Shown: positions 2,011-51,272 of the stretch, piece by piece
Layout: every line of letters starts with the position of its first letter
How positions within the stretch are numbered: position 1 is the first letter of the stretch
Origin: Thermoanaerobaculia bacterium
Lineage (GTDB): Bacteria > Acidobacteriota > Thermoanaerobaculia > Multivoradales > UBA5704
Direction: 5' to 3'
NCBI GenBank assembly: GCA_030150965.1
Contig: JASLEW010000394.1
Location: 1-52,197 of the forward strand
DNA length: 52,197 bases
Made by a program: the position numbers and the translations under genes
Notes under the pieces: model-generated
The model's input: only the letters and a program-made list of their open reading frames with translations
The model's database searches: none
What the model was told of the DNA's origin: nothing

Positions 2011-3339
2011 ATGAAGAGCCGCGGTATGGCAGCGTTCCTCGCCGTCTTGGCGGGGCAGGTGGTCTCCGCTCTGGGAACCGGTCTTAGCGGGTTCGCCCTC
2101 GGGGTGTGGGTATACCAGCGGACGGGCTCGGCGACACGGTTCGCCCTCATCACCTTGGTGACGACGCTGCCCGGCATTCTCCTGTCACCGATCGCGGGCG
2201 CGCTGGTGGACCGCTGGGACCGCCGCCGGGTGATGATCCTGAGCAACGTGGGCGCGGGGTGCACCACCCTGATCCTCGCGCTCCTGTTCTGGTACGACCG
2301 GCTGGAGCTCTGGCACATCTACCTCCTCCTGGCTCTCGGCTCGGCGTTCGGCACCCTTCAGTGGCCGGCCTTTTCCGCGGCAACGACCCTGCTCGTCCCC
2401 AAGGAGCACCTCGGGCGCGCCGCCGGCCTGACGCAGGCGGGGACAGCGGTCTCCGCGATCCTGGCCCCGGTGCTCGCCGGCGTTCTGGTGGTGAGGATCG
2501 GGCTCCAAGGGATCGTGCTCATCGACTTCGCGAGCTTCCTCGTAGCGATGGCTACTCTCCTGTGCGTCCAAGTGCCGCGCGCCGAGGTCACGGCGGAGGG
2601 ACTGGCGACCCGCGGCTCGCTACTGCGCGAGGCCGCATCGGGATGGTCGTACATCCGCCAGCGGCCGGGCCTCCTGTCGCTGCTGGGTCTGATCGCCGCG
2701 AGCAACTTCAGCGTGGGGATGATGCAGGTCCTGGTGACTCCGATGATCCTCTCCTTCACCTCGGCCGCCGTGCTGGGCCGCGTGCTGTCGGTGGCCGGGG
2801 CCGGCATGCTCGCCGGCAGTCTGCTGATAAGTGTGTGGGGCGGGCCCTCGCGGCGGGTCTTGGGCATCCTCGGCTTCATGATGCTTCAGGGCGCCATCCT
2901 CTTGGCTGGAGGGCTGTGGCCCAGCGCGATGCTCATTGCTGCGGCGGGGTTCGTGTTCCTGTTCACCGTGCCGATCATCCTCGGCTGCAGCCAGGCCCTC
3001 TGGCAGTCCAAGGTCGCGCCGGACCTGCAGGGACGGGTGTTCGCGGTGCGCAGGATGGTGGCCTGGTCGACCCTGCCGCTGAGCTACCTCATCACCGGGC
3101 CTCTGACGGACCGGGTCTTCGAGCCGCTGCTCGCGGTGAACGGCCCTCTCTCGGGCAGCGTCGGACGGCTCATCGGAGTGGGGAAGGGGCGGGGGAGCGC
3201 CCTGCTCCTCATCCTCCTCGGGATACTCGTCATGCTGACGGTCGCGGCGTTCTCCCGGTACTCCCGGCTGCGGCAGCTCGAGTCGGAGCTGCCGGACGTG
3301 CTACCGGAAACGTGGCTGGATCCAGTGGCGCAGACATAA
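2011..3339 (+). CDS. MFS transporter (EntS/MFS_3-like, 12-TM exporter type), first gene of the NRPS-PKS operon
   Basis: From ATG 2011: MKSRGMAAFLAVLAGQVVSALGTGLSGFALGVWVYQRTG...LPGILLSPIAGALVDRWDRRRVMI, the typical N-terminus of the enterobactin-exporter-like MFS family. Hydrophobic helices continue throughout. The gene ends 60 nt before the NRPS start. The track start at 1921 is a TTG-initiated extension without membrane character. Confidence 0.75.
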   Translation: MKSRGMAAFLAVLAGQVVSALGTGLSGFALGVWVYQRTGSATRFALITLVTTLPGILLSPIAGALVDRWDRRRVMILSNVGAGCTTLILALLFWYDRLELWHIYLLLALGSAFGTLQWPAFSAATTLLVPKEHLGRAAGLTQAGTAVSAILAPVLAGVLVVRIGLQGIVLIDFASFLVAMATLLCVQVPRAEVTAEGLATRGSLLREAASGWSYIRQRPGLLSLLGLIAASNFSVGMMQVLVTPMILSFTSAAVLGRVLSVAGAGMLAGSLLISVWGGPSRRVLGILGFMMLQGAILLAGGLWPSAMLIAAAGFVFLFTVPIILGCSQALWQSKVAPDLQGRVFAVRRMVAWSTLPLSYLITGPLTDRVFEPLLAVNGPLSGSVGRLIGVGKGRGSALLLILLGILVMLTVAAFSRYSRLRQLESELPDVLPETWLDPVAQT

Positions 3340-3398
3340 CAAAATCTTAGCATCTAAAGCGGTTGCCATGATGGAGGACACGCAGGGTAGGCCTTGCC

Positions 3399-6300
3399 AT
3401 GCGGCCCAATAGCCTGACTGAGATCCTTCGAGCTCGCGGCACGGAGTGTGCCAGCCGGCGTGCCTTCCTTTTCCTCGACAACCAGGGGAACGAAGCCGCG
3501 GAGCTGAGCCTCGGCGAGATGGACCGGCGCTTCGATCCGGCTGCCATCCGAGCGCTCGTCGCCGCGGAGGCCGCGCGCGTCCTCGGTCTCGACCCCGGAA
3601 GGCTGAAGCCGGACTGCCCCCTCTCCGCGCTCGGACTGGACTCGCTGGCCGCTGTCGAGCTCAAGGCGGGACTGGAAGAGAAATCCGGTGTCTCCGTGTC
3701 GCTCACCCAGCTGCTCTCCGGGGCGAGCCTCGCGTCCGTCGCGGCGGAGGTGCTGGCGGGATCGGCGGTGCCGCGCCAGGTGCCGGAGTTGGAGATCGGG
3801 GCTCCTCTCGGCGACCATCCCCTCTCGGCAGGGCAGGAGGCTCTCTGGTTCTCCGACCGGCTGGCTCCGGAGGCCGCCGCTTACAATGTGGCGACGGCCG
3901 TCCACGTCGAGGGGGGACTCGACCCGGAAGCCCTGGGGCGCTCCCTCCAGGCTCTGGCCGACCGCCATCCGGCCCTGCGGACCACTTTCTTCTCTCAGCT
4001 CGGCGAGCCGCGCCAGATCGTTCACCAGCGCCTCGCCGTGGATTTCCGCGTCGAGCCATCGGGGTCGAAGGGGTCGGAGATCCCGCTCGTGGCCGAGGCC
4101 TACCGCCCATTCGATCTCGAAAACGAGTCTCTTCTACGGGTCCGGGTCTGGCCTCTGGAGGGCGGCGGCTGGCTCTTGCTCCTCGTCGTACACCATCTGG
4201 TGACCGATTTCTGGTCGCTCGGCCTCTTCGCCCGGGAGCTTGCAGCGCTCTATGGCGAGGCGACCGGCCAGGGAGCGGCGCGGCTCGCACCCCTGCAGCT
4301 CGGCTACACCGACTACGTCCGCTGGCAGGGCAACCTTCTTGCCGGGGAGCAAGGTGAGCGGCTCTGGGAGCACTGGCGCCAACAGCTCTCGGGAGATCTT
4401 CCCGTGCTGGAGCTGGTGACGGACCGTCCCCGTCCCGCCGTCCAGACATATATCGGCCTCTCCCGCGGCCTGCGCCTCGCGCCCGAGCTTGCGGACCGGC
4501 TGCGGGCGCTCAGCCTGGCTTCGGGAACGACGCTCTTCGTCACCCTTCTGGCCGGGTTCCAGGCTCTCCTTGGCCGTTGCACCGGACAGGATGAGGTCGT
4601 GATCGGCTCCCCCACGGCGGGCCGGGACGCCGCGCCCTTCCTGGGGGTGATGGGCTACTTCGTCAACCCGGTGGCGCTCCGCCTCTCCAGCGCAGGCGAT
4701 CCTGCCTGGCGCGATCTCCTGTCGTTTGCCAAGGCGGTTTGTCTCGCCGCATTCGAGCACCGGGATCTCCCCTTTGCCATCCTGGCCGAGCGGCTCCATC
4801 CCGAGCGGGACCCCAGCCGTTCCCCGGTTTTCCAGACGCTCTTCGCGCTCCACAAGGCGCAGCGGCCGGAGGAGAGGAGCCTGGCGGAGCTCGCCGCGGG
4901 AATAGGGAGGGCCCGGGTCACCCTGTCGGACCTCGAGCTCCTTGCCGTCCCCCTCGAGGAGTGCCGCTCTCCCTTCGACCTCACGTTGACGGCCGCCGAT
5001 GCCGAGGCGGGCCTCCCGATCGTCCTGCAGGTCAACCGCGACCTCTTCGATCCCGCTACGGCGGAACGCCTGGTGCGGGCTCTCGAGAATCTGCTGTACG
5101 CCCTGACCGAGGATCCCGATGCCCGAGTCTCCGCGGCCGAGATGCTCGGGGACGCGGAGCGCCGGCAACTCGCGGCCTGGAGCTGCACCACGGTCGAGCT
5201 GCCGCGCGGCCTCTGCCTGCCGGACCTCTTCGCCGCGCAAGCGGAGCGCACTCCGGAGCGAGAGGCCCTCGTCGCCGGCGGTGAGCATCTCACCTACCGA
5301 GAGCTGGGCCGTCGGGTGGAGATCCTGGGGCGGAGGCTTCGCCTCCTCGGCGTCGGACCGGAGAGCCGGGTCGGGGTCTCCGCCGGCCGATCGGCCGATC
5401 TGGTCGTCGCGCTTCTCGCGGTCCTGCGGGCAGGCGGCGCCTACGTGCCGCTCGACCCCATTCAGCCCACCGAGCGGCTCGCCTGGATGCTGCAGGACTC
5501 CGGGGCGAAGGTGTTGCTCGTCGAGGAGCGCCTCGCTCCAGGCCTGCTGGCAGCCGGGGTGCCCGCACACTGCCGCATCGTCTTGCTCGACCGCGTCGCG
5601 GACCTCAGCAGAGCCGAGGAGGGGATCCAGGGACGGCAAGATCCCATACTGCCCGGAAATCTCGCCTACCTGATCTATACCTCGGGATCCACGGGACGGC
5701 CGAAGGGAGTGGCGATCGAGCACCGGAGCGCGGTGACGCTCGTACAGTGGGCGCGGCAGGTCTTCACGGACGCCGAGCTGTCCGGGGTCCTCGCCGCCAC
5801 CTCGATCGGCTTCGACCTCTCGGTCTTCGAGCTTTTCGTACCCCTTTGCTGGGGTGGGCGGGTGATCCTGGCCGAGAATGCCCTGGCCCTCCCCGGACTG
5901 CCCGCGGCGGCAGAGGTGCGGCTGGTCAACACCGTGCCTTCGGTCCTCGCCGAGCTGGTCCGCGGGGAGGACGGGCTGGAGCTGCCGGGTTCGGTCACCA
6001 CCATCAACCTGGCCGGAGAGCCCCTGCCGCGCTCCCTGGTGCGGGCCATCCACGAGAAACACCCGGCGGCGCGGGTGCTCAACCTCTACGGCCCTTCCGA
6101 GGACACGACCTACTCGACGTTCGCCGTGGTCTCGCCGGACGGAGAGCTGCCGCCGGCCATCGGCCGGCCGATCGCCAACACCCAGGCCCATGTGCTGGAC
6201 CGGGCCAGACGCCAGGTGCCGGCCGGCATGCGGGGCGAGCTTCATCTCGGCGGAGAGGGTCTGGCGCGGGGCTACCATGGGCGGCCGGATCTCACGGCGG

Positions 6301-9300
6301 AGCGGTTCGTCCCGGACCCGTTCGCGACGGGAGCGCGGCTCTACAGGACCGGGGACCTGGCCCGCTGGCGGCCGGACAGGGAGCTCGAGTTCCTCGGCCG
6401 CATCGATCATCAGGTGAAGATCCGCGGCGTCCGCATCGAGCCGGCGGAAGTGGAATCGGCGCTGCTCTCGCGGCCGGGAGTGCGCGAGGCGGTGGTCCTG
6501 CCGCAGGGAGAGGGGAGCGACCGGCGCCTCATCGCCTATGTCGTCGCCGAGGCCGGTGCGGAGCTGGAGGGGGACGCCCTCCGCGAGTCGCTCCTCGGGC
6601 TCCTGCCGCGGGCCATGGTGCCCGCGGCGATCATGCCGGTCCCCGGCCTGCCGCTCACTCCGAACGGCAAGCTGGACCGCCGCGTCCTGGCGCGGCTCGC
6701 CCCGGAGCCATCGGCAGGTGCAGGAGCGGAGCCCGCGGCGCCGCGCTCACCGGTGGAGGAGCTGCTCGCCGGCATCTGGGCGGAGGTCCTCGGGGTCGAG
6801 CGGGTAGGGGCGGGAGACGACTTCTTCGCGCTCGGCGGGCATTCCCTTCTCGCTCTGCGCGTCCAGGCCCGGGTGCGCGAACGGCTCGGCGCCGAGCTGC
6901 CGCTCTCCGTGTTCTTTCAGCATCCCACGCTGGCAGCGCAGGCGCGGCGGCTCGCCGCCCGCAAGGTGGACGACCGCCCGCCGCTTCGTCCGTCGCCGCG
7001 GGAGCGGACCGTTTTTCCTCTCTCCTTCGCTCAGGAACGCGTCTGGTTCCTCGAGCGGCTCGAGCCGGGCACCGCGGTCTATCACATGGCCGGCAGCACC
7101 CGCCTGACCGGCCCACTCGATCTCGCGGCGTTACGCCGCGCGCTTTGCGAGCTCGAGGGGCGGCACGACGCCCTCCGCGCCCGGTTCCGGGAAGTAGACG
7201 AGATCCCGGTCCAGGAGATCGCCCCTGCGGAGCTGGACGGTCCGGAGTTGCTGGTCGTGTGCCTCGGGGGGTTGGAACCGGCGGTGCAGGAAGCCGAGGC
7301 GGAGCGTCTCACCAGCGACGAAGCCCAGCGCCCCTTCGATCTGGAGAACGGGCCGCCGTGGCGGCTCCTTCTCCTGCGCCGGGATCGCTGCCTTCACGAG
7401 CTCCTCATCACTCTGCACCACATCGCCGCCGATGAGGAATCGCTGGTGATCCTGGCGCGGGAGCTGGGCGCGCTCTATGCCGGCTTCCACAAGGGAAGGC
7501 CTCCCAGGTTGCCGGAGTTGCCGCTGCGCTCCGTTGACTTTGCCCTGTGGCAGAGGGAAGGGCTGGTTGGCGAGGTGCTGGAGAAGCGGCTCGCCTGGTG
7601 GCGGGAACAGCTGGCCGATCTCCCCGTCATCGAGGTGGCGGCCGACCGTCCTCGTACTGAGGCGCGGAGCTCCCGTGGAGATGTGGTCACCACCGTTCTC
7701 TCGCCGGCCCTCGCCGATGCCCTCGCTGCGCTGGGCCGCCGGGAGGGTGTCACGCTGTTCATGATGCTCCTCGCCGGCTTCCAGGTCATCCTGGAGCGGA
7801 TCGCTGGCGAGCCGGAGGTGCCGGTCGGCTGTCCGGTCGCCAACCGCGACCGCGAGCCGCTGCTCTCGGTGATCGGTTTCCTGGTCAACACCCTGGTCCT
7901 CCGAGCGAGCAGCACAGCGGCCCCAAGCTTCGGCGGATTCCTGCGGCGGGTGCGGGAGGTCACCGTCGAGACCTTCGAGCATGGTGATGTCCCGTTCGAG
8001 CTGCTGGTCCAAGCGCTCCAACCGGAACGGGCTCTCGGCCGCAACCCGCTCTTCGAGGTGGCCTTCGCGCTCCAGCGGCCACCCCGTGGCTGGCAGCTCG
8101 ACGATCTCGCCTTCGCGCCTCGGATCGTGCCGACCAGGACGGCCAAGTTCGCCCTCACCCTGTTCGGCATCGCAGAGGAGGGGAAGCTCTCGCTTCTCCT
8201 CGAGTACGCGACGGACCTCTTCGACCGGCCGACCCCGGCGCGCCTGCTGGGTTATCTCGAGACGCTGCTCGCCGCGGCGGCCGCGGAGCCTGCGCGCCCA
8301 CTCGCCGAGATCCCCTTGCTCGCTCCGGCGGAGCAGCAGGCGCTGATCCATCGTCCGGGAGCACGGCTCCTGCGCAAGGTGGCGAGGGCGCGCTTCCCGG
8401 AGAGTCCCGGGGGGGATGGGCCGCGCGTCCCGGCCGCTCCGCGGACTCCCACCGAGGAGCGGCTGGTCGAGGTCTGGGCCGGTGTGCTGGAACGCGGGCA
8501 GGTGTCGATCCACGACGACTTCTTCAGCCTCGGTGGTCATTCGCTCCTGGCCTCTCGGGTCGTGGCACGGATCCGCAAGTCCCTGGGCGTCGACCTGCCG
8601 CTCTCGATCCTCTTCACCTGTCCGACCATCGCGCGACTGGCCGCCGAGGTCGACCGCGCGCGCCGCGCCTCGGATGCGGGCGTGACGGAGGTAGAGCGGG
8701 TGCCGACACCCCTCGCCTGCCGCTGGGAGGACGGCTCCGCCCCACCGCTTTCTTTTGCCCAGGAGCAGCTCTGGTTCATCGACCAGCTGGAGCCGGGGAG
8801 CCCGGTTTACAACCTATCCACCGCCGTATGCCTCGATGGGGCTCTCGACCGCAATGCCCTGCGCAGGGCTCTGGCCCAGGTCGTCGAGCGCCACACGGTC
8901 CTCCGCACGACCTTTCGCGCCTTCGCGGGGCGACCGGTCCAGGTCGTGGCGCCGCATTTCCTCCCCATCCTGCACGAGATCGATCTCCTGGATCTCGCTC
9001 CCGGAGTGCGGCAGGACGAGGCGGCGCGCCATGTGGCGGCCTGGGCGCTCGCCCCCTTCGACCTTGCCGCAGGCCCCCTCTTCCGCGCCGCTTTGCTGCG
9101 GCTGGGCGAGAGCAGCCACCTCCTGCTTGTCACCTTCCATCACTCCATCGCCGATGGCTGGTCGTTGCGTATCTTCTATGAAGAGCTCGGGGCGCTCTAC
9201 GCGGCAGTCCATGGGGAGGTGCCGGTCCTCCCGGCGCTGCCGATCCAATACGCCGACTTCGCCGCCTGGCAGCGTGAGCGGCTTCGCGGCGGCGTGCTCA

Positions 9301-10784
9301 AGCGCCTGATCGCCTACTGGCGGCAGCGGCTGGCCGGTGCTCCCGCTGCTCTCGACCTGCCGTTCGACCGTCCGCGTCCGCCGGTCCAGACCTACGGCGG
9401 CACCTCACAACTCCTGGAGATCGGCATCGGGGCCACGCAGGCCCTCCGTACCTTCGTCCGCGACGAGAGCGCAACCCTCTTCATGACGCTCATCGCCGCC
9501 TGGGCGACCCTCCTGCACCTGCTGAGCGACGAGGAGGACGTGATCCTGGGGACTCCCACGGCCAACCGCTCGCTCCCCGAGCTCGAGCCGCTCATCGGCT
9601 TGTTCGCCAACACCATCCCCCTGCGCGTCGATCTCTCGGGAGATCCGACGTTCCGCGAGCTCGTCGGACGGGTCCGGACCGCGGCGCTGGCCGACTTCGC
9701 CCATCAGGAGATGCCGTTCGAGAAGCTCGTCGAGGAGCTGAGGCCCGAACGCGACCTCAGCCACCATCCGATCTACCAGGTGGTCTTCGCGCTCGAGACG
9801 TCGTCCCGGCCGGACTTCCTGGACCTCTCCGGCCTGCGGATGGCGCCGCTGCCTCCGACCGAGGGGACGGCGAAGTTCGACCTCGCCCTCTACATGGACG
9901 ACCGCGGCGGCCGGCTCGCCGGTCTGTTCGAGACGAACCGCGATCTTCTCGACCGCAGCACGGCCGCGCGCTGGCTCGGACATTTCACGGCCCTCGCCGC
10001 GGCGGGGGCGGGAGATCCGGCGCGGCGCCTCTCGGAGCTGCCGCTGCTCGCGCCGGCCGAGCAGCTCGAGCTCCTCAGCCGCGCCGGTGAGCGGGTGAAG
10101 GTCCGCGGCTACAGGATCGATCCCCGGATCGTCGAGGCCTCCCTCGCCGGCCATCCGGCGGTCGCCTCCGCGGTGCTGATCCGGCGCGCCGATCCGCCCG
10201 GGGAGGAGCGGCTCGTCGCCTATGTGACGGTGCGGCCGGAGGGCTCGGCTCCCGGCGCGGGAGAGCTGCGCTCGTTTCTCGCCGGGCGCCTGCCCGAGTA
10301 CATGCTGCCCGGCGCGTTCGTCGTCCTCGCCGATCTGCCACGGACCGCCGGCGGTGAGCTCGACCTGGGCGCCCTGCCCGTGCCGCAGGAGAAGGCCGAC
10401 CTCGGCGGCGACCCCATGGCGCCGAAATCGCCGGATGACGGGGCCGACGGTGCGGGGAGGATCGTCGCCGAGATCTGGCAGGAGCTCCTGGAGGTCGAGA
10501 AGGTCGAGCTGCGCGACAACTTCTTCGCTCTCGGCGGGCACTCGCTCCTGCTTCTCCCATTGCAGGAGCGCCTGCGCGAGAGGTTCGGAGTCAGCCTGCC
10601 GGTCGTCGAGCTGTTCAAGTTCCCGACCGCGGGCGCGCTCTCCGCACACCTGGCTGCGAGGACGGCTGCGGAAGCCCCCCGTCCCCCCGAGAAGACCCTG
10701 GACCGCGTCGAGGCTGTGCGCCAGGGCCGCGAGCGGCTGAAGCGGCGCGCGGAGCGGAATGCCCGAAAGACAGGAGCGAGGTGA
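3399..10784 (+). CDS. Non-ribosomal peptide synthetase A: FAAL stub - ACP - C-A-T - C-T - C-(A C-terminal subdomain only)-T
   Basis: Domain order read from motifs. FAAL-like N-terminal stub (aa 1-45). ACP (LGLDSLAAVELK, Ser codon 3642). C (HHLVTDFWS, ~4191). A (LAYLIYTSGSTGRPKGV ~5661; NLYGPSEDTTY; YRTGDLARW; PNGKLDRRVL). T (FFALGGHSLLAL, Ser 6843). C (HHIAADEES, ~7417). T (FFSLGGHSLLAS, Ser 8541). C (FHHSIADGWS, ~9137). A8-A10 remnant (VKVRGYRIDP...LPEYMLP, ~10081-10385). T (FFALGGHSLLLL, Ser 10542). Confidence 0.9.
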   Translation: MRPNSLTEILRARGTECASRRAFLFLDNQGNEAAELSLGEMDRRFDPAAIRALVAAEAARVLGLDPGRLKPDCPLSALGLDSLAAVELKAGLEEKSGVSVSLTQLLSGASLASVAAEVLAGSAVPRQVPELEIGAPLGDHPLSAGQEALWFSDRLAPEAAAYNVATAVHVEGGLDPEALGRSLQALADRHPALRTTFFSQLGEPRQIVHQRLAVDFRVEPSGSKGSEIPLVAEAYRPFDLENESLLRVRVWPLEGGGWLLLLVVHHLVTDFWSLGLFARELAALYGEATGQGAARLAPLQLGYTDYVRWQGNLLAGEQGERLWEHWRQQLSGDLPVLELVTDRPRPAVQTYIGLSRGLRLAPELADRLRALSLASGTTLFVTLLAGFQALLGRCTGQDEVVIGSPTAGRDAAPFLGVMGYFVNPVALRLSSAGDPAWRDLLSFAKAVCLAAFEHRDLPFAILAERLHPERDPSRSPVFQTLFALHKAQRPEERSLAELAAGIGRARVTLSDLELLAVPLEECRSPFDLTLTAADAEAGLPIVLQVNRDLFDPATAERLVRALENLLYALTEDPDARVSAAEMLGDAERRQLAAWSCTTVELPRGLCLPDLFAAQAERTPEREALVAGGEHLTYRELGRRVEILGRRLRLLGVGPESRVGVSAGRSADLVVALLAVLRAGGAYVPLDPIQPTERLAWMLQDSGAKVLLVEERLAPGLLAAGVPAHCRIVLLDRVADLSRAEEGIQGRQDPILPGNLAYLIYTSGSTGRPKGVAIEHRSAVTLVQWARQVFTDAELSGVLAATSIGFDLSVFELFVPLCWGGRVILAENALALPGLPAAAEVRLVNTVPSVLAELVRGEDGLELPGSVTTINLAGEPLPRSLVRAIHEKHPAARVLNLYGPSEDTTYSTFAVVSPDGELPPAIGRPIANTQAHVLDRARRQVPAGMRGELHLGGEGLARGYHGRPDLTAERFVPDPFATGARLYRTGDLARWRPDRELEFLGRIDHQVKIRGVRIEPAEVESALLSRPGVREAVVLPQGEGSDRRLIAYVVAEAGAELEGDALRESLLGLLPRAMVPAAIMPVPGLPLTPNGKLDRRVLARLAPEPSAGAGAEPAAPRSPVEELLAGIWAEVLGVERVGAGDDFFALGGHSLLALRVQARVRERLGAELPLSVFFQHPTLAAQARRLAARKVDDRPPLRPSPRERTVFPLSFAQERVWFLERLEPGTAVYHMAGSTRLTGPLDLAALRRALCELEGRHDALRARFREVDEIPVQEIAPAELDGPELLVVCLGGLEPAVQEAEAERLTSDEAQRPFDLENGPPWRLLLLRRDRCLHELLITLHHIAADEESLVILARELGALYAGFHKGRPPRLPELPLRSVDFALWQREGLVGEVLEKRLAWWREQLADLPVIEVAADRPRTEARSSRGDVVTTVLSPALADALAALGRREGVTLFMMLLAGFQVILERIAGEPEVPVGCPVANRDREPLLSVIGFLVNTLVLRASSTAAPSFGGFLRRVREVTVETFEHGDVPFELLVQALQPERALGRNPLFEVAFALQRPPRGWQLDDLAFAPRIVPTRTAKFALTLFGIAEEGKLSLLLEYATDLFDRPTPARLLGYLETLLAAAAAEPARPLAEIPLLAPAEQQALIHRPGARLLRKVARARFPESPGGDGPRVPAAPRTPTEERLVEVWAGVLERGQVSIHDDFFSLGGHSLLASRVVARIRKSLGVDLPLSILFTCPTIARLAAEVDRARRASDAGVTEVERVPTPLACRWEDGSAPPLSFAQEQLWFIDQLEPGSPVYNLSTAVCLDGALDRNALRRALAQVVERHTVLRTTFRAFAGRPVQVVAPHFLPILHEIDLLDLAPGVRQDEAARHVAAWALAPFDLAAGPLFRAALLRLGESSHLLLVTFHHSIADGWSLRIFYEELGALYAAVHGEVPVLPALPIQYADFAAWQRERLRGGVLKRLIAYWRQRLAGAPAALDLPFDRPRPPVQTYGGTSQLLEIGIGATQALRTFVRDESATLFMTLIAAWATLLHLLSDEEDVILGTPTANRSLPELEPLIGLFANTIPLRVDLSGDPTFRELVGRVRTAALADFAHQEMPFEKLVEELRPERDLSHHPIYQVVFALETSSRPDFLDLSGLRMAPLPPTEGTAKFDLALYMDDRGGRLAGLFETNRDLLDRSTAARWLGHFTALAAAGAGDPARRLSELPLLAPAEQLELLSRAGERVKVRGYRIDPRIVEASLAGHPAVASAVLIRRADPPGEERLVAYVTVRPEGSAPGAGELRSFLAGRLPEYMLPGAFVVLADLPRTAGGELDLGALPVPQEKADLGGDPMAPKSPDDGADGAGRIVAEIWQELLEVEKVELRDNFFALGGHSLLLLPLQERLRERFGVSLPVVELFKFPTAGALSAHLAARTAAEAPRPPEKTLDRVEAVRQGRERLKRRAERNARKTGAR

Positions 10785-10799: not shown

Positions 10800-13700
10800 A
10801 TGGAGCAGGACATGAATGAGCCGAAGGTCGAACAGCTCGAACGGACGGACATGGAGGGGATCGCCGTCGTCGGCATCGCCGCCCGATTCCCGGGCGCACG
10901 CAACGCCGCCGAGCTGTGGCGCAACCTGCGTGACGGGATCGCATCGATCTCGTTCTTCAGCGAGGAGGAGCTGGCCGCGGCCGGAGTGGAGCCCGCGCTG
11001 CTGGCCGATCCACGCTACGTGCGGGCCAAGGGCTCCCTGGAGGACGCGGACCTCTTCGACGCAGCCCTCTTCGGCCTCACGCCGCGCGAGGCCGAAACCA
11101 TGGATCCCCAGCACCGGATCTTCCTGGAGTGCGCCTGGGAGGCGCTGGAGGATGCGGCTTGCGATCCGGAGCGCTTCGGGGGCCGCATCGGCGTCTGGGC
11201 CGGCTCGGGCTTCAGCTCCTACCTCCTCTCGAATCTCCTGCCCAACCAAGAGAGGATGGAGGGCTTCGGCGCCCTCCAGGTGGCGCTCCTCAACGACCGC
11301 GACTTCCTCGCCACGAGGGCCTCGTACCAGCTGAACCTCAAGGGACCCAGCGTGTCGGTCCAGACCGCCTGCTCGACCTCGCTGGTGGCAGCTCACATGG
11401 CCTGCCAGGGCTTGATCGGGGGCGAGTGCGACATGGCGCTCGCCGGGGGCGTCTCGATCAGCGCGCCGCTGCGCACGGGCTACCTGTACCAGGAGGGGAG
11501 CGTGCTCTCGCCGGACGGCTGCTGCCGCGCCTTCGACGCCGCCGCGGCCGGCACCGTGGAGGGGAACGGCTGCGGAGTCATCGTCCTGAAGCGGCTTGAC
11601 GACGCCCTGGCCGACGGCGACCGCATCTATGCGGTGATCCGCGGCTCGGCGGTGAACAACGACGGCTCGGCCAAGATCGGCTTCACCGCGCCCAGCGTGG
11701 AGGGGCAGGCCTCGGCCATTTCCGAGGCCCTGATGACGGCCGGGGTCGATCCCGGGACGATCGGCTACGTCGAGGCCCATGGCAGCGGCACGCCGCTCGG
11801 CGATCCCATTGAGATTGCGGCGCTCACCAAGGCTTTCCGCGCGGCGGGAGCCGAGGGCATGGGCTTCTGCGCCATCGGATCGATCAAGACCAACCTGGGC
11901 CATTGCAACACGGCAGCGGGCGTGGCCGGGCTCATCAAGGCCGTCCTGGCGCTGGCGCACGGGACTCTGCCACCCAGCCTCCACTACGAGAGCCCCAACC
12001 CGCAGATCGACTTCGCCGGCAGCCCCTTCTATATCTGCACAGAGGCGCGGCCGTGGACCACCGATGGAGGGCCGAGGCGGGCCGGCGCGAGCTCGTTCGG
12101 CCTGGGCGGGACGAACGCCCACGCCGTGCTGGAGGAAGCGCCCGAGCAGGAGCCGGGCGATCTCCCCTCCCGGCCGGCACAGCTCCTGGTTCTTTCGGCC
12201 CGCACCCCGGCGGCGCTCGACGCGGCGGCGGCCCGGCTGGCGGACCACCTGGAGGCGAATCCGGACGCCGACCTCGCCGACATCGCGTGGACCCTCCAAG
12301 TCGGGCGCAAGGAGCTCGAGCACCGCCGGATCGCCGTGGCCCGCGACCGCGAGTCCGCCAGCTCCGCGCTCAGGGACCGTGCCCCCGCCGCCGTCACCGG
12401 CAAGCAGGAGGGCGCATGGTCGAGGCCGGTGGTGTTCCTCTTCCCAGGGCTCGGCGACCAGCACGTGGACATGGCCCGGGAGCTCTATGAGACCGAGGCG
12501 CTCTTCCGCGGGCAGGTCGACCTTTGCGCCTCCAAGCTCCAGTCCTGGCTGGGCGCCGACCTGCGCGAGGTGCTCTTTTCGCCCGGCGAGTGGTCGCTGC
12601 CCGCCAAGGCAGCCCCGGACCTGCGCACCATGCTCCGCCGCTCCGCGGAGACCTCGCGCCTCCACGAGACCCTGTTCGCGCAGCCGGCCTGCTTCGTGGT
12701 CGAGTACGCCCTGGGCCGTCTGTTGATGGACTGGGGGATCGTGCCCCGGGCCCTGATCGGCTACAGCCTCGGCGAGTACGTGGCGGCATGCTTGTCGGGA
12801 GCGCTCTCCCTGGACGATGCCCTGGAGCTGGTGGCGCGGCGGGCGAAGTTGATCCAGGCCCTCCCCGGGGGAGCCATGCTTGCGGTGCCCTTGCCCGAGG
12901 AGGAGATCCGGCTGCTGCTGGGGGAGGGCCTGTCCCTCTCCGCTACCAACGGCCCGCATTTCTGTGTGGTGGGAGGGACCGGCGAGGCGGTGGATACGCT
13001 GGACCGGCAACTGGCCGGGCGCGGCGTGAGCTGCCTCCGGCTGCGCACCACGCACGCGTTCCACTCCGCGCTGATGGAGCCGGCCGTGGCTCCCTTCACC
13101 AAGATCGCGTGCAAGGTGCGCATGCAGGCGCCGGAGATCCCCTTTGTCTCCAACGTCACCGGCACCTGGATCACCGCGGACGACCTCGCCGGCCCCGCCT
13201 ACTGGGCGCGGCACCTGCGCCATCCCGTACGCTTCGCGGAGGGCATCGGCGAGCTGCTCCAGGAGCCCGAGCACGTTTTCCTGGAGGTCGGCCCGGGCGC
13301 GACCCTGGGCACGCTGGTCAAGCAGCACCCGGCTGCCGTGGCCAACCGGGTCACGGTCCCGACTCTGCGCGCCGGGGGCTCCGATCTGGAGACCCTGCTG
13401 GAGGCCGTGGGCCGGCTGTGGATCGCGGGGACCCACGTGGACTGGGCCCGCTTTCACGGCGGCGAGCGCCGCCTCAAGGCGCGGCTGCCGACCTATCCCT
13501 TCGAGCGCCAGCGCCACTGGATCGATCCGTCGAAGGACTCGGCGAAACCCGCGGCGGCGGCCGGTCCCGCGGCCGGCCTCGCGGACTGGTTCTGGGTCCC
13601 AGCCTGGAAGCAGGTGCCGCGCATGGCCGGCCTCCGGGAGGCCCTCCGCTGGCTGGTCTTTCTGGATGAAGCAGGGCTGGGAGAGAGAATCGCGGCGCGG

Positions 13701-15461
13701 CTGCGTAAGGACGGCCACCAGGTCGTTACCGCGAGGCGTGGCGCCGCCTTCGAGGAGATCGGGGAGGGTGCGTTCACGATCCATCCCGCCCGCCGGCAGG
13801 ACTACGACGCGCTGCTCCGTGGCAGGCCGCCCGGGAAGATCCTCCACCTCTGGGGGATCACGTCCGCGGAGCCCTCCTTCGCGGCGGCGCAGACGGCGGG
13901 GCTCGTCAGCCTGACGCTGTTGACGCAGGCCCTCTCGGTCGTCGAGAGCGATGCTCAGATCCGGCTCACCGTCGCGACCAACGGTCTCCACGAGCTGGTG
14001 GACGGCGATCCGATCCATCCCGGCAAGGGCACGCTTCTCGGAGCCCTGAAAGTGTTCCACCAGGAGCTGCCGCGCCTGACCTGCTCCAGTGTCGACGTCG
14101 CGCTCTCCGCAGTCGCGGAAGACCGCCTCGTGGAACAGCTCCTGGCCGAGAGTTCCGGTCCGGCGGAGACGGTCGTGGCCCTGCGGGGCCGCCAGCGTTG
14201 GGTCCGTGGCTTCGAGCCGATGCGTCTCGCCGAGGAGGGGTCGAGGCTCGCCGAGGAGGGTGTCTACCTGATCGCCGGTGCCGCGCATGGTCCCGGCATG
14301 GCGATGGCCGAGCATCTGGTGCGCTCGGGAGCCCGGGTCGGGCTGGTCCTGCCGCCGCAGCTACCGGCACGGGAGCAGTGGGAGACCTGGAAGGAGCTGC
14401 CTGAGCTGCCGGGAGGGCAGGACGTGATCGGTGCCGTCATCCTGCGGCTCCTGGCGATCGAGCGTGAGGTGGGGCTCGACCGGGTCCTGATCCTGCGCTC
14501 GGACCCGGGAGCGGCCCTCACCGAGACCCGCGCCCGCTTCGGCCCGATTCATGGCGTCTTCTTCACCGGCGGCATCTTCGCCGGCGGCCTGATCCAGCTC
14601 AAGGCTCCGGAGGCCCTGCAGACAGCCCTGGCGCCGCTGGCCCGGGAGGCCGAGGCGCTCCTCGATGCCGTGGACGCCGAGCCCGAGCCGCCTTCCTTCG
14701 TCATGCTGTCTTCCACCGTGATCGCCGTCACGGGCGGCCTGGGCCAGCTCGAGGTTGCCGCAGCCGGTGGGTTCCTGGAGGCGCTCGCCGCGCGGCGTCA
14801 TGCGGAGGGGAAGCCATTCACCGTGGCTGCGCACTGGGATGCTTATCAGTGGGGTGGCTGGCTCGTGACCGGGGTGGCCGGCGCCATGTCCGGCTTCACT
14901 CCGGAAGCGGTGCAGGCGAATCTGGCGACGTACGGCATCTCGGAGAATCAGAGCGCCGGCGCGATGCGGCGGCTCTTGGCGAGCTCCCTGCCCCGGGTGA
15001 TTGTCTCCGCCCAGGACCTCCCCCGTCTGATGGCAGCCGCGGACAGCGTCACCGCGGACACCCTGCTGGCCCAGATGGCGCCGGCCCGCCACGGAGAAAG
15101 GGCGCAGCGGCCGGGGCTCTCGACCGCCTATGAGCCGCCGCAGGACGAGCTCGAAGAGAGCCTCGCCGGCATCTGGCAGGACCTCCTCGGCATCGAGCCC
15201 ATCGGCCGGGACGACAGCTTCCTGGAGCTGGGCGGCCATTCACTCCTCGCCATCCAGACCGTCACGCAGATCCGGAGCGTTCTGAAGGTCGACCTGCCGG
15301 TGACCACGCTCTTCGAGTCACCGACGGTCACGAAGCTGGCCAAGGTTGTGCGCCGAGCTCGCGGCCAGGGTACCCCCGTGAACGTGGAGGCGCTGCTCGC
15401 CCTGGTCGAGGGGCTCTCCCCCGCCGAAGCCGCGCAGAAGCTCGCGGAGCTGGGGGGCTGA
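10800..15461 (+). CDS. Type I polyketide synthase module: KS - AT (malonyl-type) - KR-like (probably inactive) - carrier
   Basis: AGGAG (10788-10792) lies 7 nt before ATG 10800. KS: IAVVGIAARFPGA, TACSTSLVA (Cys codon 11370), EAHGSGTPLGDPIE, GSIKTNLGHCNTAAG. AT: FLFPGLGDQH, GYSLGE (Ser codon 12765), HAFHS. KR-like region ~13540-14900. Carrier: FLELGGHSLLAI (Ser codon 15240). Confidence 0.9.
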   Translation: MEQDMNEPKVEQLERTDMEGIAVVGIAARFPGARNAAELWRNLRDGIASISFFSEEELAAAGVEPALLADPRYVRAKGSLEDADLFDAALFGLTPREAETMDPQHRIFLECAWEALEDAACDPERFGGRIGVWAGSGFSSYLLSNLLPNQERMEGFGALQVALLNDRDFLATRASYQLNLKGPSVSVQTACSTSLVAAHMACQGLIGGECDMALAGGVSISAPLRTGYLYQEGSVLSPDGCCRAFDAAAAGTVEGNGCGVIVLKRLDDALADGDRIYAVIRGSAVNNDGSAKIGFTAPSVEGQASAISEALMTAGVDPGTIGYVEAHGSGTPLGDPIEIAALTKAFRAAGAEGMGFCAIGSIKTNLGHCNTAAGVAGLIKAVLALAHGTLPPSLHYESPNPQIDFAGSPFYICTEARPWTTDGGPRRAGASSFGLGGTNAHAVLEEAPEQEPGDLPSRPAQLLVLSARTPAALDAAAARLADHLEANPDADLADIAWTLQVGRKELEHRRIAVARDRESASSALRDRAPAAVTGKQEGAWSRPVVFLFPGLGDQHVDMARELYETEALFRGQVDLCASKLQSWLGADLREVLFSPGEWSLPAKAAPDLRTMLRRSAETSRLHETLFAQPACFVVEYALGRLLMDWGIVPRALIGYSLGEYVAACLSGALSLDDALELVARRAKLIQALPGGAMLAVPLPEEEIRLLLGEGLSLSATNGPHFCVVGGTGEAVDTLDRQLAGRGVSCLRLRTTHAFHSALMEPAVAPFTKIACKVRMQAPEIPFVSNVTGTWITADDLAGPAYWARHLRHPVRFAEGIGELLQEPEHVFLEVGPGATLGTLVKQHPAAVANRVTVPTLRAGGSDLETLLEAVGRLWIAGTHVDWARFHGGERRLKARLPTYPFERQRHWIDPSKDSAKPAAAAGPAAGLADWFWVPAWKQVPRMAGLREALRWLVFLDEAGLGERIAARLRKDGHQVVTARRGAAFEEIGEGAFTIHPARRQDYDALLRGRPPGKILHLWGITSAEPSFAAAQTAGLVSLTLLTQALSVVESDAQIRLTVATNGLHELVDGDPIHPGKGTLLGALKVFHQELPRLTCSSVDVALSAVAEDRLVEQLLAESSGPAETVVALRGRQRWVRGFEPMRLAEEGSRLAEEGVYLIAGAAHGPGMAMAEHLVRSGARVGLVLPPQLPAREQWETWKELPELPGGQDVIGAVILRLLAIEREVGLDRVLILRSDPGAALTETRARFGPIHGVFFTGGIFAGGLIQLKAPEALQTALAPLAREAEALLDAVDAEPEPPSFVMLSSTVIAVTGGLGQLEVAAAGGFLEALAARRHAEGKPFTVAAHWDAYQWGGWLVTGVAGAMSGFTPEAVQANLATYGISENQSAGAMRRLLASSLPRVIVSAQDLPRLMAAADSVTADTLLAQMAPARHGERAQRPGLSTAYEPPQDELEESLAGIWQDLLGIEPIGRDDSFLELGGHSLLAIQTVTQIRSVLKVDLPVTTLFESPTVTKLAKVVRRARGQGTPVNVEALLALVEGLSPAEAAQKLAELGG

Positions 15462-16912
15462 TGAGCGTCGCCGACCGCCTGTCCTCCTTGAGCCGGGAGC
15501 AGCGGGCCCTGTTCGAGCGGCTGCTGCAGCAGCAGAGCCGCCCGGTGGCCCGAACTCCGCCGCCGGTACGTTCGGTCTCCGGCCCGTCCGGCGTCGGCGA
15601 CTGGCCTCTCTCCTTCGACCAGGAGCGAGTCCTGCAGCTCCACCGGGACCATCCCGGTCTGGTCGCCTGGAACGTGGATGTGGGCAGCCACGTCATGGGC
15701 GAGCTGGATGTCCCTCTGTTCCTGGCCGCCTGCCGCGAGCTCGTCCGCCGGCACGCGGCTTGGCGCACCACGTTTCCGGTCGTGGATGGCCGTCCCGTGC
15801 AGCGGGTCCATCCCTGGGTGGAGCCCGGGACCTGCGTGATCGACCTGAGCGAGTTGCCGGCGGCGAGGAAGGAGGAGACCGGGCACGCGGCCCTCTACGA
15901 GCACACGCGAAACCCGTTCGACCTGGAGGTGGGACCGCTTCTGCGCATCGCGCTGGTGCGGCTCGCCCGGCGGGAGCATCTGTATCAGGTGACGATCCAT
16001 CACACGGTCACGGACTGGATCGCCTATCAGATCTTCTTCCAGGAGCTGCTCGCCCTGTACGAGGCGTTCCGCGCCGGCCGTCCCTCGCCGCTGCCGCCGC
16101 CGCCCGTGCAGTTCCCCGACTTTGCCGTGTGGGAGCGGGAGTGGCTCCAGGGGGAGGTGCTGGACGAAGAGGCCCGCTTCTGGCGCCGGGAGCTGGAGGG
16201 CTTCCCCCTGGTGCTGGACCTGCCGGCGAGCCGCCCCCGTCCGCCGGTGCAGAGCCAGCGGGGTGGGCTCCTGCGCATCGCGGCCGGGTCCGGGCGCACG
16301 GACCGCCTGCGAGCTCTGGCGCAGAAGGAGGGGGGCACCATGTTCATGGCGGTGCTGGCCGTCCTCAACGCGCTCGTGCGGGACCTCACCGGGCGGGACA
16401 GAATCGTGATCGGCTCGAACAGCGCCAACCGGCCCCGGCCGGAGCTGGCGGGGGTGGCCGGCTTCTTCCTCACCCAGGTGCCCTTCGCGACGGAGGTGTC
16501 GGGAGATCCCACGTTCCGCGAGCTGCTCGCCCGCACGAGGCGAACGGCCCTGGCGGCCTATGCTCACCAGAACCTGCCGTTCACCAAGCTGATCGAAGCG
16601 CTTGGGCTGGAGCCCGACCCGAGCCGTTACCCGGTCGTGCAGGTCCTCCTTCTGGTCCTGGAGGGGCAGAGTCGGGGTCGGTCCGGGAACCTGGAGTTCC
16701 GGCCGGTGTGGATCTCCGACGGCAACTCCCGCTGGGACCTCGCGATCGTCCTCTACGACTACCACGACGTCGGCCTCACCGGCGCCCTGGAGTACAACGC
16801 GGACATCTTCGATGCCCGGGACGCCGAGCGGCTGGTCGGTCGGTTTCTCTCGATCCTCGATGCCGTGGCCGCCGACCCCGACGTCCACCTGTCCGGTCTG
16901 GAGCCCGGATGA
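15461..16912 (+). CDS. Free-standing NRPS condensation-domain protein
   Basis: 483 aa. WPLSFDQERVLQLH at the N-terminus, active-site-type IHHTVTDWIAY, and a later C-domain block GSNSANRPRPELAGVAGFFLTQVPF. The start overlaps the PKS stop by 1 nt (TGATG), and its stop overlaps the next start (ATGA). Confidence 0.8.
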   Translation: MSVADRLSSLSREQRALFERLLQQQSRPVARTPPPVRSVSGPSGVGDWPLSFDQERVLQLHRDHPGLVAWNVDVGSHVMGELDVPLFLAACRELVRRHAAWRTTFPVVDGRPVQRVHPWVEPGTCVIDLSELPAARKEETGHAALYEHTRNPFDLEVGPLLRIALVRLARREHLYQVTIHHTVTDWIAYQIFFQELLALYEAFRAGRPSPLPPPPVQFPDFAVWEREWLQGEVLDEEARFWRRELEGFPLVLDLPASRPRPPVQSQRGGLLRIAAGSGRTDRLRALAQKEGGTMFMAVLAVLNALVRDLTGRDRIVIGSNSANRPRPELAGVAGFFLTQVPFATEVSGDPTFRELLARTRRTALAAYAHQNLPFTKLIEALGLEPDPSRYPVVQVLLLVLEGQSRGRSGNLEFRPVWISDGNSRWDLAIVLYDYHDVGLTGALEYNADIFDARDAERLVGRFLSILDAVAADPDVHLSGLEPG

Positions 16913-19900
16913 GCGTCACCGTCACCGACCGCCTGGCGGCTCTCGCTCCCGAGCAGCGAGCCCTGTTCGAAAGGCTGCTGGAGAAGGAGCTCGAGGACGC
17001 GCGCATCCACCAGCCGGCTCCTCCGATCCTGCCGGTGCCGCGAGACCGTGACCTTCCTCTCTCCTTCTCCCAGCAACGACTCTGGCTCATCGACCAGATC
17101 GAGCCGGGCAGCCCGGCGTACAACATCCCGCAGGTCCTGCGTCTGGTTGGTGAGATCGAGCCCAGCTTGCTGCAATGGATCTTCTCCGAGATCGTCCGCC
17201 GGCACGAGTCGCTGCGCACGACGTTCGTCTCTCGGCAGGACGGTCCCGTGCAGGTGATCGCCTCTCCGGAGCCGCTCGCTCTCTCGCTCCTCGATCTTTC
17301 TCACCTACCCGAGAAGGAACGCGAATCTCAGGCGCGGGATCTCGCGTTGGCCGAGGCCAGGCGCCCGTTCGACCTCCAGCGGGGTCCGCTGCTGCGCCTG
17401 CTCCTGGTGCGCCTGATCGAGAGACACCACCTCCTGCTCCTGACCATGCACCATATTGTCGCGGATGGCTGGTCCATGGGCATCCTGGTCCGCGAGATCA
17501 TGGCACTTTACACGGCGTTCGCCGAGGGCAGACCGTCGACCCTGCCGGAGCTGCCGGTACAGTACGCGGATTTTGCGGTGTGGCAAGCCTCCTGGTTGCA
17601 GGGCGAGGTCCTGGCGAGCGAGATCTCCTTCTGGAAACGGCAGTTGGCGGGATTGCCGCCACTCTTGGAGCTGCCCACCGACCGGCCACGTCCGGCGGCG
17701 CAGACCTTCCGTGGCGCCACCCAGCCGTTTCATCTCGAGTCTGGCTCCGCGGACGCTGTGCGCGAGCTGTGCTGGCGCGAAGAAGCGACCCCCTTCATGG
17801 TCCTGCTCGCCTCCTGGGCGGCCCTGCTGGGGCGCCATGCGGGACAGGACGACGTGGTCATGGGCGCACCGGTTGCCGGGCGCAACCGGCGGGAGATCGA
17901 AGGATTGATCGGGTTCTTCGTCAACACCCTGGTCCTGCGATCGGATCTGTCCGGAGATCCGAGCTTCCGTGAGTTGCTGCACCGAGTGCGCCAGGCGTCC
18001 CTCGACGCCTTTGCCCACCAGGATCTCCCCTTCGAGCGGATCGTCGAGGAGATCGGGGTCGAGAGAAACCTGGCGATCTCTCCGCTCTTTCAGGTGCTCT
18101 TCATTTTTCAGAATGTCCCGGTGGGGAATCTCACCGTGCCGGGGCTGGCGCTGTCGCAGGTCGACGTGGACGCAGGCCTCGCGAAATTCGATCTCTCCCT
18201 GTCCCTGACTGACACCGGGGCCGGGTTTTCGGGCGCTCTCGAGTTCGCCACGGACCTGTTCGATTCAACGACCATGGACCGGCTTCAGGACCACTTCCGG
18301 ACCCTGCTGGCAAGCGCCATGTCCGATCCGCAACGGCGCTTGGCGGAGCTGCCTTTGCTGGCGAACGGCGAGCTGCATCAGATCCTTTGGGAATGGAACG
18401 ATGCTCCAGGTCGGGACGGGTCTTCGTGCGTCCACCACCTCATCGAGACGCAGGCGCGTCGGAGGTCGGAGCTGGCGGCCGTTCTGACCTCGGAGGGGGT
18501 GGAGATCTCCTATGGCGAGCTCGACCGGCTGGCAGACAGGCTCGCGTCGAGACTGCGCGCGCTCGGTGTGCTGCCGGACGACAGGGTCGGCGTCTGTCTG
18601 CATCGGGGCTGGGAAGGAGCCGTGGTCTTGCTCGCTATCCTGAAGGCGGGTGGCTGCTATCTGCCTCTCGACCCGGCCTACCCGCGCGAGCGATTGGGAT
18701 TCATGCTGTCTGACGCTGCGGCGCCAGTGATCGTGACGCGCGACGGATTGGTCGAAGCCCAGCCTGTGCAGGGCGTCCGCCTGCTCTCGCTCGATGACTT
18801 CTGGGAGGGCGATCGGCCTCGCGAGGAGAGGAGAGGAGATCTCCCCGTGGTGGATCTCAACCACCTGTCCTACATCATCTACACCTCCGGCTCGACAGGC
18901 CAGCCCAAGGGGGTGGCTCTGCCGCACCGCACACTGGCCAATCTGATCGCTTGGCAGATCACCGCCTCGGCAGTACCCGCGGGGCGGACCCTCCAATTCG
19001 CCTCGCCGAGCTTCGACGTGTCGCTGCAGGAGACGCTCGCAACCTGGGCCGCGGGGGGCACGCTGGTCCTGCTGTCCGAGGACGACCGCCGAGATGCCGA
19101 AGCCGTGCTGCGCCGCTTGCGCGGAGCGCGCGTCGAGCGCCTGTTCCTGCCGTTCGTCGCCCTCCAGCAGATCGCCGAGGCAGCCGCCCGCGCCGACGCG
19201 CTTCCCCCCCTGCGGGAGGTGGTCACCGCGGGCGAGCAGCTCCAGATGACTCCCGAGGTACGTGCCTTCTTCTCGCGCCTTCCCGGCTGCGTGTTGCGCA
19301 ACCAGTACGGGCCGTCCGAGACCCATGTGGTGACCGAGTCTTCGCTGTGGAACGAGCCGCACGGAGAGGTGGAGGAGTGGCCTGCCCTGCCGTCCATCGG
19401 GCGCCCCATCGCCGGCACCGAGGTCCATCTGCTGGATTTTCGGGGCGAGCTGGTCCCGATCGGAGCCCCAGGGGAGATCTATCTGGGAGGCCGGGGGCTG
19501 GCGCGCGGCTACCTGGGCCGTCCGGACCTGACCGCCGCGCGGTTCCTCCCCGATCCATGGGGTAGCCAGGGTGACCGGCTCTATCGAACCGGGGATCTGG
19601 CACGCCGCAGCCGCTCGGGCGAGATCGAATTCCTGGGCCGCATCGACCACCAGGTCAAGATCCGCGGATTCCGGGTCGAGCCGGGGGAGATCGAGGCGGC
19701 TCTGGCCGAGCACCCCAGCGTGCGTCAGGCCGTGATCGCCGTCCGGGAGGATCTCCCCGGCGGGCGTGGGCTGGTGGCGTTCGTGGTGCCGGACGGCGAG
19801 CCCGTGCCCGCTGTCGCCGAGCTGCGGCAGCTCCTGCGCGAGCGTCTGCCGGAGTTCATGGTGCCCGGCCACCTGGCCTTCCTCGACCGGCTGCCGGTCA

Positions 19901-49868: not shown

Positions 49869-51272
<1,404 letters not shown>

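Follow-up and report, generated by a model that had tools for sequence, protein, structure and literature searches.

How a peptide assembly line starts its product when the domain that should charge its first carrier is gone is the question raised by the stretch of DNA analysed here, hereafter the window, which is the entire 52,197-bp contig (C654) of a Thermoanaerobaculia metagenome-assembled genome (MAG; 999 contigs, 6.36 Mb, 84.7% complete). The open reading frame (ORF) at 3399..10784 of the forward strand, with 2461 codons, encodes a nonribosomal peptide synthetase (NRPS) of 2461 aa, for which the ORF translation, Pfam and a domain map indicated the order (FAAL stub)-ACP-C-A-T-C-T-C-(A C-terminal subdomain)-T, where FAAL is fatty-acyl-AMP ligase, ACP acyl carrier protein, C condensation, A adenylation and T thiolation domain. 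The translation shows MRPNSLTEILRARGTECASRRAFLFLDNQGNEAAELSLGEMDRR at the N-terminus, directly joined to FDPAAIRALVAAEAARVLGLDP...LGLDSLAAVELK. A preliminary description of the window had proposed that this N-terminus is a stub of about 45 residues from a FAAL or A domain, fused to the starter ACP, and had left two outcomes, namely loading of the ACP in trans or loss of the loading function. This either/or is still the right framing, and the evidence leans towards loading in trans. We consider it reasonably probable that the assembly line is in use and that a discrete FAAL, acting in trans, acylates its first carrier, ACP1.

Origin of the N-terminal stub and the deletion junction

To trace the stub, a large protein collection was searched with NRPS residues 1-140, which returned P0007, a 3243-aa orthologue from a Thermoanaerobaculia MAG that has MRPHSLIEALRSRTTERAGRRAFLFLDSHGNEAAELSAGELDRR at its start, then a complete FAAL and then ...IGSLDPAAIRALVAAEAARVL. 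Residues 1-589 of P0007 contain a Pfam AMP-binding domain (15-408) and a DIP2/FAAL-type C-terminal domain, and the best single-domain NCBIfam matches of this region are fatty-acid--AMP ligase families. The N-terminal domain of P0007 also matches NCBIfam PRK05691 (non-ribosomal peptide synthase/polyketide synthase subfamily), which we take to be the PvdL-like subfamily. Codons 1-44 of the window gene (3399..3530, forward strand), which end at the A1-like motif LSxGExDRR, are collinear with P0007 residues 1-44 and encode 33 identical residues out of 44 (75%). At the nucleotide level, a blastn comparison matched window 3397-3530 to 9999-10132 of the P0007 locus (L002) with 80% identity over 134 nt (E=5e-31), so that the match spans from 2 bases before the start codon to codon 44. 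Furthermore, a tblastn search of the 6.36-Mb genome with the first 46 residues detected FAAL N-termini of the same genome on contig C361 (TFVEVLRARAAESPEARAYTFLDAAGEEAATLTFADLERR; 45% over 40 aa, E=1.4e-6) and on contig C815 (42%, E=0.007). The matches to P0007, C361 and C815 confirmed the proposed resemblance to a FAAL/A-domain N-terminus up to the A1-like motif, and NRPS residues 1-44 are, from these alignments, a genuine leftover of a FAAL domain.

The remainder of the ligase could not be recognized in the protein. Within NRPS residues 1-144, no Pfam match to AMP-binding (PF00501) was found, the matches being to carrier-protein models only (PP-binding, PF00550, 54-117, E=1.5e-13; ACP_SdgA_C 49-118), and the stub by itself has no Pfam match. 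The FAAL core, represented by the A3 P-loop TSGSTxxPKG, A5, A7 and the A8 hinge, is not present, the equivalents of P0007 residues 45-589 being missing from the window protein. In the domain map, which was made by phmmer against reference domains and gives A positions in A-domain reference numbering, the carrier directly after the stub is ACP1, residues 45-125 (3531..3773, forward strand), with the phosphopantetheine serine, Ser82, encoded by the TCG codon at 3642-3644. The fusion of a stub to the starter ACP was thus borne out, with the stub mapped as 44 residues.

The position of the junction was defined by two blastn blocks against L002 that abut at 3530/3531. From 3531 onward, the window aligns with L002 from ~11769, which corresponds to P0007 residue 590 (591 in the domain map), that is, the start of the ACP. 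P0007 residues 45-589 (~545 codons, ~1.6 kb), which include motifs A2-A10 and the FAAL-ACP linker, are lost in frame, as had been stated for the catalytic body in the preliminary description, and the alignment to an intact FAAL-ACP starter that it had suggested gives the stub as P0007 1-44 and the junction at codon 44. The junction (CGC|TTC at 3528..3533, forward strand) reads CGGCGC|TTCGATCC, and its two sides share at most 3 nt (CGC). Microhomology-mediated deletion was rejected as the mechanism, only CGC being common to both sides. A single ~1.6-kb deletion removed FAAL residues 45-589 and ended exactly at the first ACP residue with the frame kept. As a consequence, translation from the ancestral start codon, with its old upstream region, now leads directly into the intact ACP and the rest of the line. 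This upstream, ribosome-binding region of the ancestral FAAL start codon (3379..3398, forward strand) is recognizable in a sister cluster, L001, where 9925-9979 corresponds to window 3379-3433 with 91% identity. As a result of the deletion, the NRPS protein has no means in cis to acylate ACP1.

It may be asked at this point whether the junction is an assembly artefact, in which the assembler linked two separate sites of an intact FAAL-ACP gene or built the contig from a rare deletion variant. The MAG is fragmented and incomplete, NRPS genes are repeat-rich, and the junction is known from the assembled contig alone, with a degenerate spanning 38-mer giving 0 occurrences in other public assemblies (metagenome and genome contig collections). 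However, the sequence shared by the two sides is far under any assembler word length, which makes a word-based mis-assembly unlikely; the join preserves the reading frame and coincides exactly with a domain boundary; and the intact allele is on no contig of the bin, the best FAAL matches elsewhere in the genome being 50-58% identical. In addition, the 2.24-Mb contig of the genome carrying L001 has an independent FAAL deletion of kilobase scale, indicating that such deletions occur in the lineage. We thus consider an artefact very unlikely.

Independent and recurrent loss of the FAAL among orthologues

The sister cluster L001 is from G002, an Acidobacteriota MAG (MFD00964.bin.1.74), and shares 96.3% identity with the window across 17.3 kb, with a dS of ~0.06 between the two. 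The gene call of its synthetase, P0006, starts within the FAAL C-terminal subdomain, which is kept there together with the A10 lysine (PF23024, residues 7-120) and is missing from the window. Upstream of P0006, the start codon and first 12 codons of the window gene are present with 91% identity, including 20 nt upstream. The deletion in L001 removed FAAL residues ~13-441 out of frame, with a jump to residue ~442. We also observed that L001 9946-10004 forms a 19-codon leader ORF made of the 12 old FAAL codons and 7 out-of-frame codons. This leader ends in a TGA that overlaps, as GTGA, with the GTG at which the truncated synthetase starts, an arrangement that looks like a rescue of the out-of-frame deletion by translational coupling. 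Codons 13-44 are kept by the window and lost in L001, whereas residues 442-589 are kept by L001 and lost in the window. Thus, each allele retains a segment missing from the other, indicating that the two deletions are independent.

Among the other orthologues, a full FAAL is present at the N-terminus of P0007, P0008, P0009 and P0011, and nothing precedes the ACP in P0012 and P0015, which start at the ACP 9-10 nt after an upstream hotdog gene. No FAAL was found within 10 kb of the P0012 synthetase in its locus, L005. P0005 (L004) is uninformative on the starter, its contig ending inside the FAAL C-terminus. In the maximum-likelihood tree of the ACP-to-C2 region, the relationships were (P0011,((P0007,(window,P0005,P0006)),((P0008,P0009),(P0012,P0015)))), with a path distance between the window and P0007 of 0.22 changes per column. 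This topology implies at least three FAAL losses in the synthetase family, and such recurrence implies that the cis FAAL is dispensable. When P0007 1-600 was used to query a set of 5.8 billion proteins, no intact-FAAL orthologue nearer to the window than P0007 was found, the next being P0009 (82%) and P0008 (81%). A search of public contig collections for other alleles of the gene start, using a 23-mer, returned only the P0007 contigs and the L001 genome, apart from one chance match in Streptomyces.

The orthologue comparison, which the preliminary description had recommended, thus located an intact FAAL in related clusters and indicated that the stub is not a conserved docking element. It also bears on the idea that the stub has been retained for a function, for instance as a helix by which a loader acting in trans docks or recognises the protein. 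The stub is translated in frame from the ancestral start, and its dN/dS against P0007 is 0.37, although most of this divergence predates the deletion, giving the value little weight. However, L001 keeps only 12 of these codons, which are out of frame with the synthetase, and P0012, P0015 and a paralogue on contig C442 of the same genome as the window have nothing before the ACP. Moreover, in intact FAALs, the residues concerned belong to the N-terminal subdomain (P0007 AMP-binding 15-408). A functional role of this kind is, in our judgment, highly improbable, and the stub would probably be an unstructured N-terminal tail without a function of its own.

Selection on the synthetase and the proposed loading of ACP1 in trans

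Whether the synthetase is still in use was judged from its integrity and codon changes. The four assembly-line genes (~27 kb) contain no internal stop and no frameshift. The codon changes private to the window comprise 75 non-synonymous and 65 synonymous ones, compared with a neutral ratio of 2.64:1 (omega ~0.44, p=1.3e-6), indicating that the NRPS gene is under significant purifying selection on the window's own branch. For C1 (residues 140-583; 3816..5147, forward strand), the private changes are 9 non-synonymous and 12 synonymous (p=0.004), the HHxxxD motif is intact (HHLVTDF) and the dN/dS is 0.25-0.34. ACP1 has an intact LGLDSL motif with Ser82, and its PDB matches are PKS/NRPS carrier proteins (PKS, polyketide synthase). 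In the FAAL-less clade of P0012 and P0015 (dS 0.46), the omega values were 0.46 for ACP1, 0.32 for C1 and 0.33 for the whole protein. ACP1 and C1 are thus as constrained there as the protein as a whole, from which it follows that an ACP-first starter without a cis FAAL is a viable and maintained architecture in this family. Loading in trans is favoured because the window branch is under purifying selection and because the ACP and C1 are constrained in the FAAL-less clade.

In the proposed mechanism, ACP1 would first receive its phosphopantetheine arm, a discrete FAAL would acylate it in trans, and C1 would condense the ACP1-borne acyl group with the residue that A2 loads. The best PDB matches of C1 are ordinary carrier-fed C domains, with the starter C domains of CDA and surfactin scoring much lower, and this kinship may fit, if weakly, a donor borne by an ACP. 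A role of C1 as an acyl-CoA-using starter C domain was rejected on the weak matches to the CDA and surfactin starters, which are suggestive only. The candidate loaders would be a stand-alone FAAL on contig C900 and the FAALs of paralogous clusters. The former is encoded by a closed 667-codon ORF (C900 1960-3960, reverse strand), is ~640 aa long, has no ACP motif after it and no NRPS neighbour, and is flanked by a histidine kinase gene and a TonB-like gene. Further FAALs of the same genome are on C815, C361 and C108. Trans loading would already be the normal state in P0012, P0015 and the ACP-first paralogue on C442. As a separate observation, FAAL-ACP-C starters had a match in all of the 41 related genomes searched (G000-G040), with up to 26 per genome; they are thus massively expanded in this acidobacterial family, and this abundance makes cross-loading plausible. 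Several stand-alone FAALs of 560-720 aa were also observed among the 41 genomes.

Comparison with known systems places the proposed mechanism as follows. The window shares with the fused FAAL-ACP-C starters, as in P0007, the start codon, the ACP and the C-A-T continuation, together with the stub, but it is without FAAL residues 45-589 and all the catalytic motifs, and it is a descendant of such starters rather than a working member. PvdL, with an acyl ligase-T-C at its N-terminus, is of a kind similar to these fused starters, and LptEF of A54145 is a fused FAAL-ACP protein that is separate from the NRPS. Initiation by a discrete FAAL and a carrier protein is established for lipopeptides of the daptomycin type (PMC9113097), in which the FAAL DptE, the carrier DptF and a specialised C domain take part (PMC9113097), and, as would be the case in the window, a separate FAAL acylates the carrier that feeds the first C domain. 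The window differs from this type in that its ACP is fused to the NRPS and not free-standing, in that its cluster is without a FAAL gene and in that C1 resembles, in the PDB comparison, ordinary carrier-fed C domains.

The alternative outcome, that the window cluster is in early decay, has to be weighed against its genomic setting. The ends of the window, with PGM at 1-1693 and a sigma-54 regulator at 49657-52151, match contig C2 of G002 at 74-86% and are only ~4 kb apart there, whereas window 2000 to ~36940 matches contig C1 of G002 at 96-97%. Taken together, these matches indicate that the cluster is in an insertion of ~48 kb, and this island was probably, judging from the two levels of identity, exchanged recently between lineages. 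The GC content is 70.6% for the window and 73.2% for the whole genome. No integrase, transposase or other mobile-element gene and no tRNA was found at the island borders. In the orthologous clusters at L001, L002, L005 and the P0009 locus, there is also a left arm, consisting of a C-A-T protein, a large radical SAM enzyme, a methyltransferase-like gene, a type II thioesterase and a 155-aa hotdog protein; at the P0008 locus, the thioesterase and hotdog genes only are present within the ~3.3 kb available upstream, and the L006 contig ends at the thioesterase. In the genome of the window, the left-arm genes have paralogues only, with 62-78% aa identity to L001, on C442 (5020 bp) and C148. We observed on C442 a paralogous left arm followed by a synthetase that starts directly at its ACP (MEPETSRLEAALRRQAARVLG...), and C442 and C148 thus hold another FAAL-less cluster of this family, the second in the genome.

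Early decay would mean that an incomplete, horizontally acquired copy has begun to degenerate, with the FAAL deletion among the first lesions of a pathway that has ceased to be under selection and ACP1 never loaded. Consistent with this, the cluster lies on the ~48-kb island, the left arm is absent from the window, with paralogues only elsewhere in the genome, L001 likewise has an inactivating FAAL deletion, dN/dS is raised to 0.44-0.62 on three terminal branches, and the remnant of the module-4 A domain and the C2-T3 linker evolve neutrally. However, the ~27 kb of the four assembly-line genes is free of stops and frameshifts, the purifying selection on the window branch (p=1.3e-6 overall, p=0.004 for C1) speaks against decay, and the FAAL-less architecture is stably kept in the P0012/P0015 clade. 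Furthermore, both deletion alleles keep a route for downstream translation, by an in-frame fusion at the ACP boundary in the window and by a coupled GTG restart in L001, so that downstream expression is preserved in both. We regard early decay, the main alternative, as possible but rather unlikely.

Several points nevertheless weigh against the use of the assembly line with trans loading, in addition to the junction being known from one contig. The FAALs on C900, C815, C361 and C108 are candidates, none of which is tied to the window cluster or to ACP1. The omega of 0.44-0.62 on the three terminal branches is to be compared with 0.28-0.33 in deeper comparisons, and the deletion could be so recent that the selection measured on the branch mostly predates it. 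For ACP1, the private changes are 4 non-synonymous and 1 synonymous, too few to test, and sequence inspection revealed R73C as a fifth non-synonymous change missed by the strict codon filter. In addition, the window copy is without the left arm that is usual in orthologues and is on an apparently recently acquired island, and the window cluster may be an incomplete copy. As for the neighbouring genes, dN/dS between the window and L001 was ~0.31 for the PKS gene and the free C gene, and the values for the second NRPS gene (NRPS-B, 0.41) and the MFS gene (0.54) were closer to that of the NRPS gene.

Eroded A domains and neighbouring genes of the cluster

The loss of an adenylating domain is not confined to the starter. 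In the NRPS protein, Pfam detected four PP-binding, three Condensation and two AMP-binding_C domains and a single AMP-binding domain (611-960), and the domain map gave the stub (1-44), ACP1 (45-125), C1 (140-583), A2 (606-1100) and T2, followed by C2 (1207-1633), T3 with no preceding A, C3 (1783-2214), an A fragment at reference positions 376-491 and T4. A2 (5214..6698, forward strand), in which motifs A1-A10 were located, is the sole complete A domain of the protein. Module 3 is an A-less C-T module, in which the C2-T3 linker and T3, with its GGHSL motif, occupy 8298..8678 (forward strand) and no A match occurs between the end of C2 at 1633 and C3 at 1783. Module 4 retains the A C-terminal subdomain only (A8-A10; 10041..10373, forward strand; Pfam AMP-binding_C 2245-2319). 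The dN/dS of this fragment is 0.93 between P0012 and P0015 and 1.2-5 among close alleles, and the fragment evolves about neutrally.

The same domains are reduced to different extents in the orthologues. In P0011, which has a full FAAL, A3 is also full, and A4 is cut by the contig end, where the A1-like LTYGELNRR follows C3 with no A match in the domain map. The other proteins with a full FAAL have an A3 piece of ~315-405 and an A4 of 324-491 (P0007), an A3 piece of ~314-392 and an A4 of 379-493 (P0008), or no A3 and an A4 of 393-492 (P0009). Of the two ACP-first proteins without any starter ligase, P0012 has an A3 of 317-393 and an A4 of 389-492, and P0015 has 40 residues of A3 and an A4 of 373-492. 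A3 is absent from P0005, the starter of which is at the contig end, from P0006 with its FAAL C-terminal remnant and from the window with its N-terminal stub, and their A4 fragments cover 377-490, 378-491 and 376-491, respectively. The A-domain losses in modules 3 and 4 are thus old and common to the orthologues, and not peculiar to the assembly of the window. The candidate suppliers for the A-less modules are A2 in cis and the C-A-T protein beside the orthologues, which is absent from the window.

Carrier domains without an adenylating domain of their own, as in modules 3 and 4, are known from other assembly lines, including yersiniabactin HMWP2, in which A-less modules are served by a trans or iterative A domain. 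AT-less (trans-AT) PKSs keep a short non-catalytic remnant of the lost cis-AT, with loading in trans, and the remnant is conserved and thought to serve as a docking region. They show the same loss of a loading domain with a remnant left behind as the window does, but they differ in enzyme class, and the FAAL stub of the window is not conserved. A-less modules served by another A domain are established for WS9326A (PMC7539972) and, with CmnI and CmnA-A1, for capreomycin (PMC12400406). In these cases the A domains are specific for amino acids, and the abstracts make no mention of vestigial stubs, whereas the window has lost a FAAL and graded remnants are seen in its orthologues. Deletion of a loading domain, after which its function is either provided in trans or disappears, is of a known kind, and its intermediates and recurrence are unusually clear here.

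Tentatively, the synthetase family could be in a transition from cis to trans adenylation, with the C and T domains kept under purifying selection, and be the NRPS counterpart of the trans-AT PKSs. On that reading, it is conceivable, though we would not expect it, that the loaders are a small shared pool made up of a stand-alone FAAL, the last A domain left in cis and the separate C-A-T protein. It is similarly doubtful, but possible, that the window stub, the C-terminal remnant of L001 and the graded A remnants represent successive snapshots of such a transition.

For annotation, the first module of the window should be described as an ACP-first starter with a dead FAAL stub, and neither as a FAAL-ACP nor as an unknown N-terminal domain, and, in predicting the product, the acyl donor is to be sought outside the cluster. 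The orthologue series provides rare natural intermediates, comprising an intact FAAL, an N-terminal stub, a C-terminal remnant and a clean ACP start, and runs parallel to a series of full, partial and absent A domains, in which carrier and condensation domains are kept while adenylating domains are shed. The junctions mark domain boundaries tolerated by evolution, which should help when FAAL-less or A-less modules are to be engineered or loading in trans is to be tested. If the copy is merely decaying, it would illustrate no more than the early stages of pseudogenisation in a transferred cluster.

The NRPS gene is followed by genes for a KS-AT-KR-ACP PKS (10800..15461), a free C protein (15461..16912), a four-module NRPS with a thioesterase (NRPS-B, ~16909..30480) and a B12-type radical SAM enzyme (30477..32123). 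A frameshift between the ORFs at 15461..16912 and 15760..30480 was considered and rejected, these being two proper genes, for the free C protein and for NRPS-B from ~16909. No FAAL gene or lone A gene was found elsewhere in the entire 52,197-bp window. In L005, the ACP-first synthetase was observed to be followed by a MacB-type transporter in place of the PKS and the large NRPS, and the first synthetase and the left arm may form a self-contained pathway there. Within the NRPS protein, the active site of C2 (~7400) was observed to be HHIAADEES, HHIAADEDS or HHIAADETS instead of HHxxxDG in every orthologue sequence retrieved, and the altered motif is, from its distribution, a family trait and no local defect.

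Directly upstream of the NRPS gene is an MFS transporter gene (2011..3339, forward strand; Pfam MFS_1/MFS_3) with 93.7% aa identity to the MFS protein of L001, and the two genes probably form one operon. The segment shared with L001 at 96% identity has its left edge at this gene, the corresponding megablast block pairing window 2000-3339 with L001 8320-9659. The 20-45 nt before the NRPS start (window 3379-3398; L001 9901-9945; L002 9945-9980) were observed to be a remnant, present as a duplicate, of the hotdog gene's 3' end, and L001 9901-9968 aligns with L002 9945-10024, which is the end of the L002 hotdog gene plus its start codon. This remnant before the NRPS start indicates that the MFS gene was inserted between the hotdog and NRPS genes in the lineage of the window and L001.

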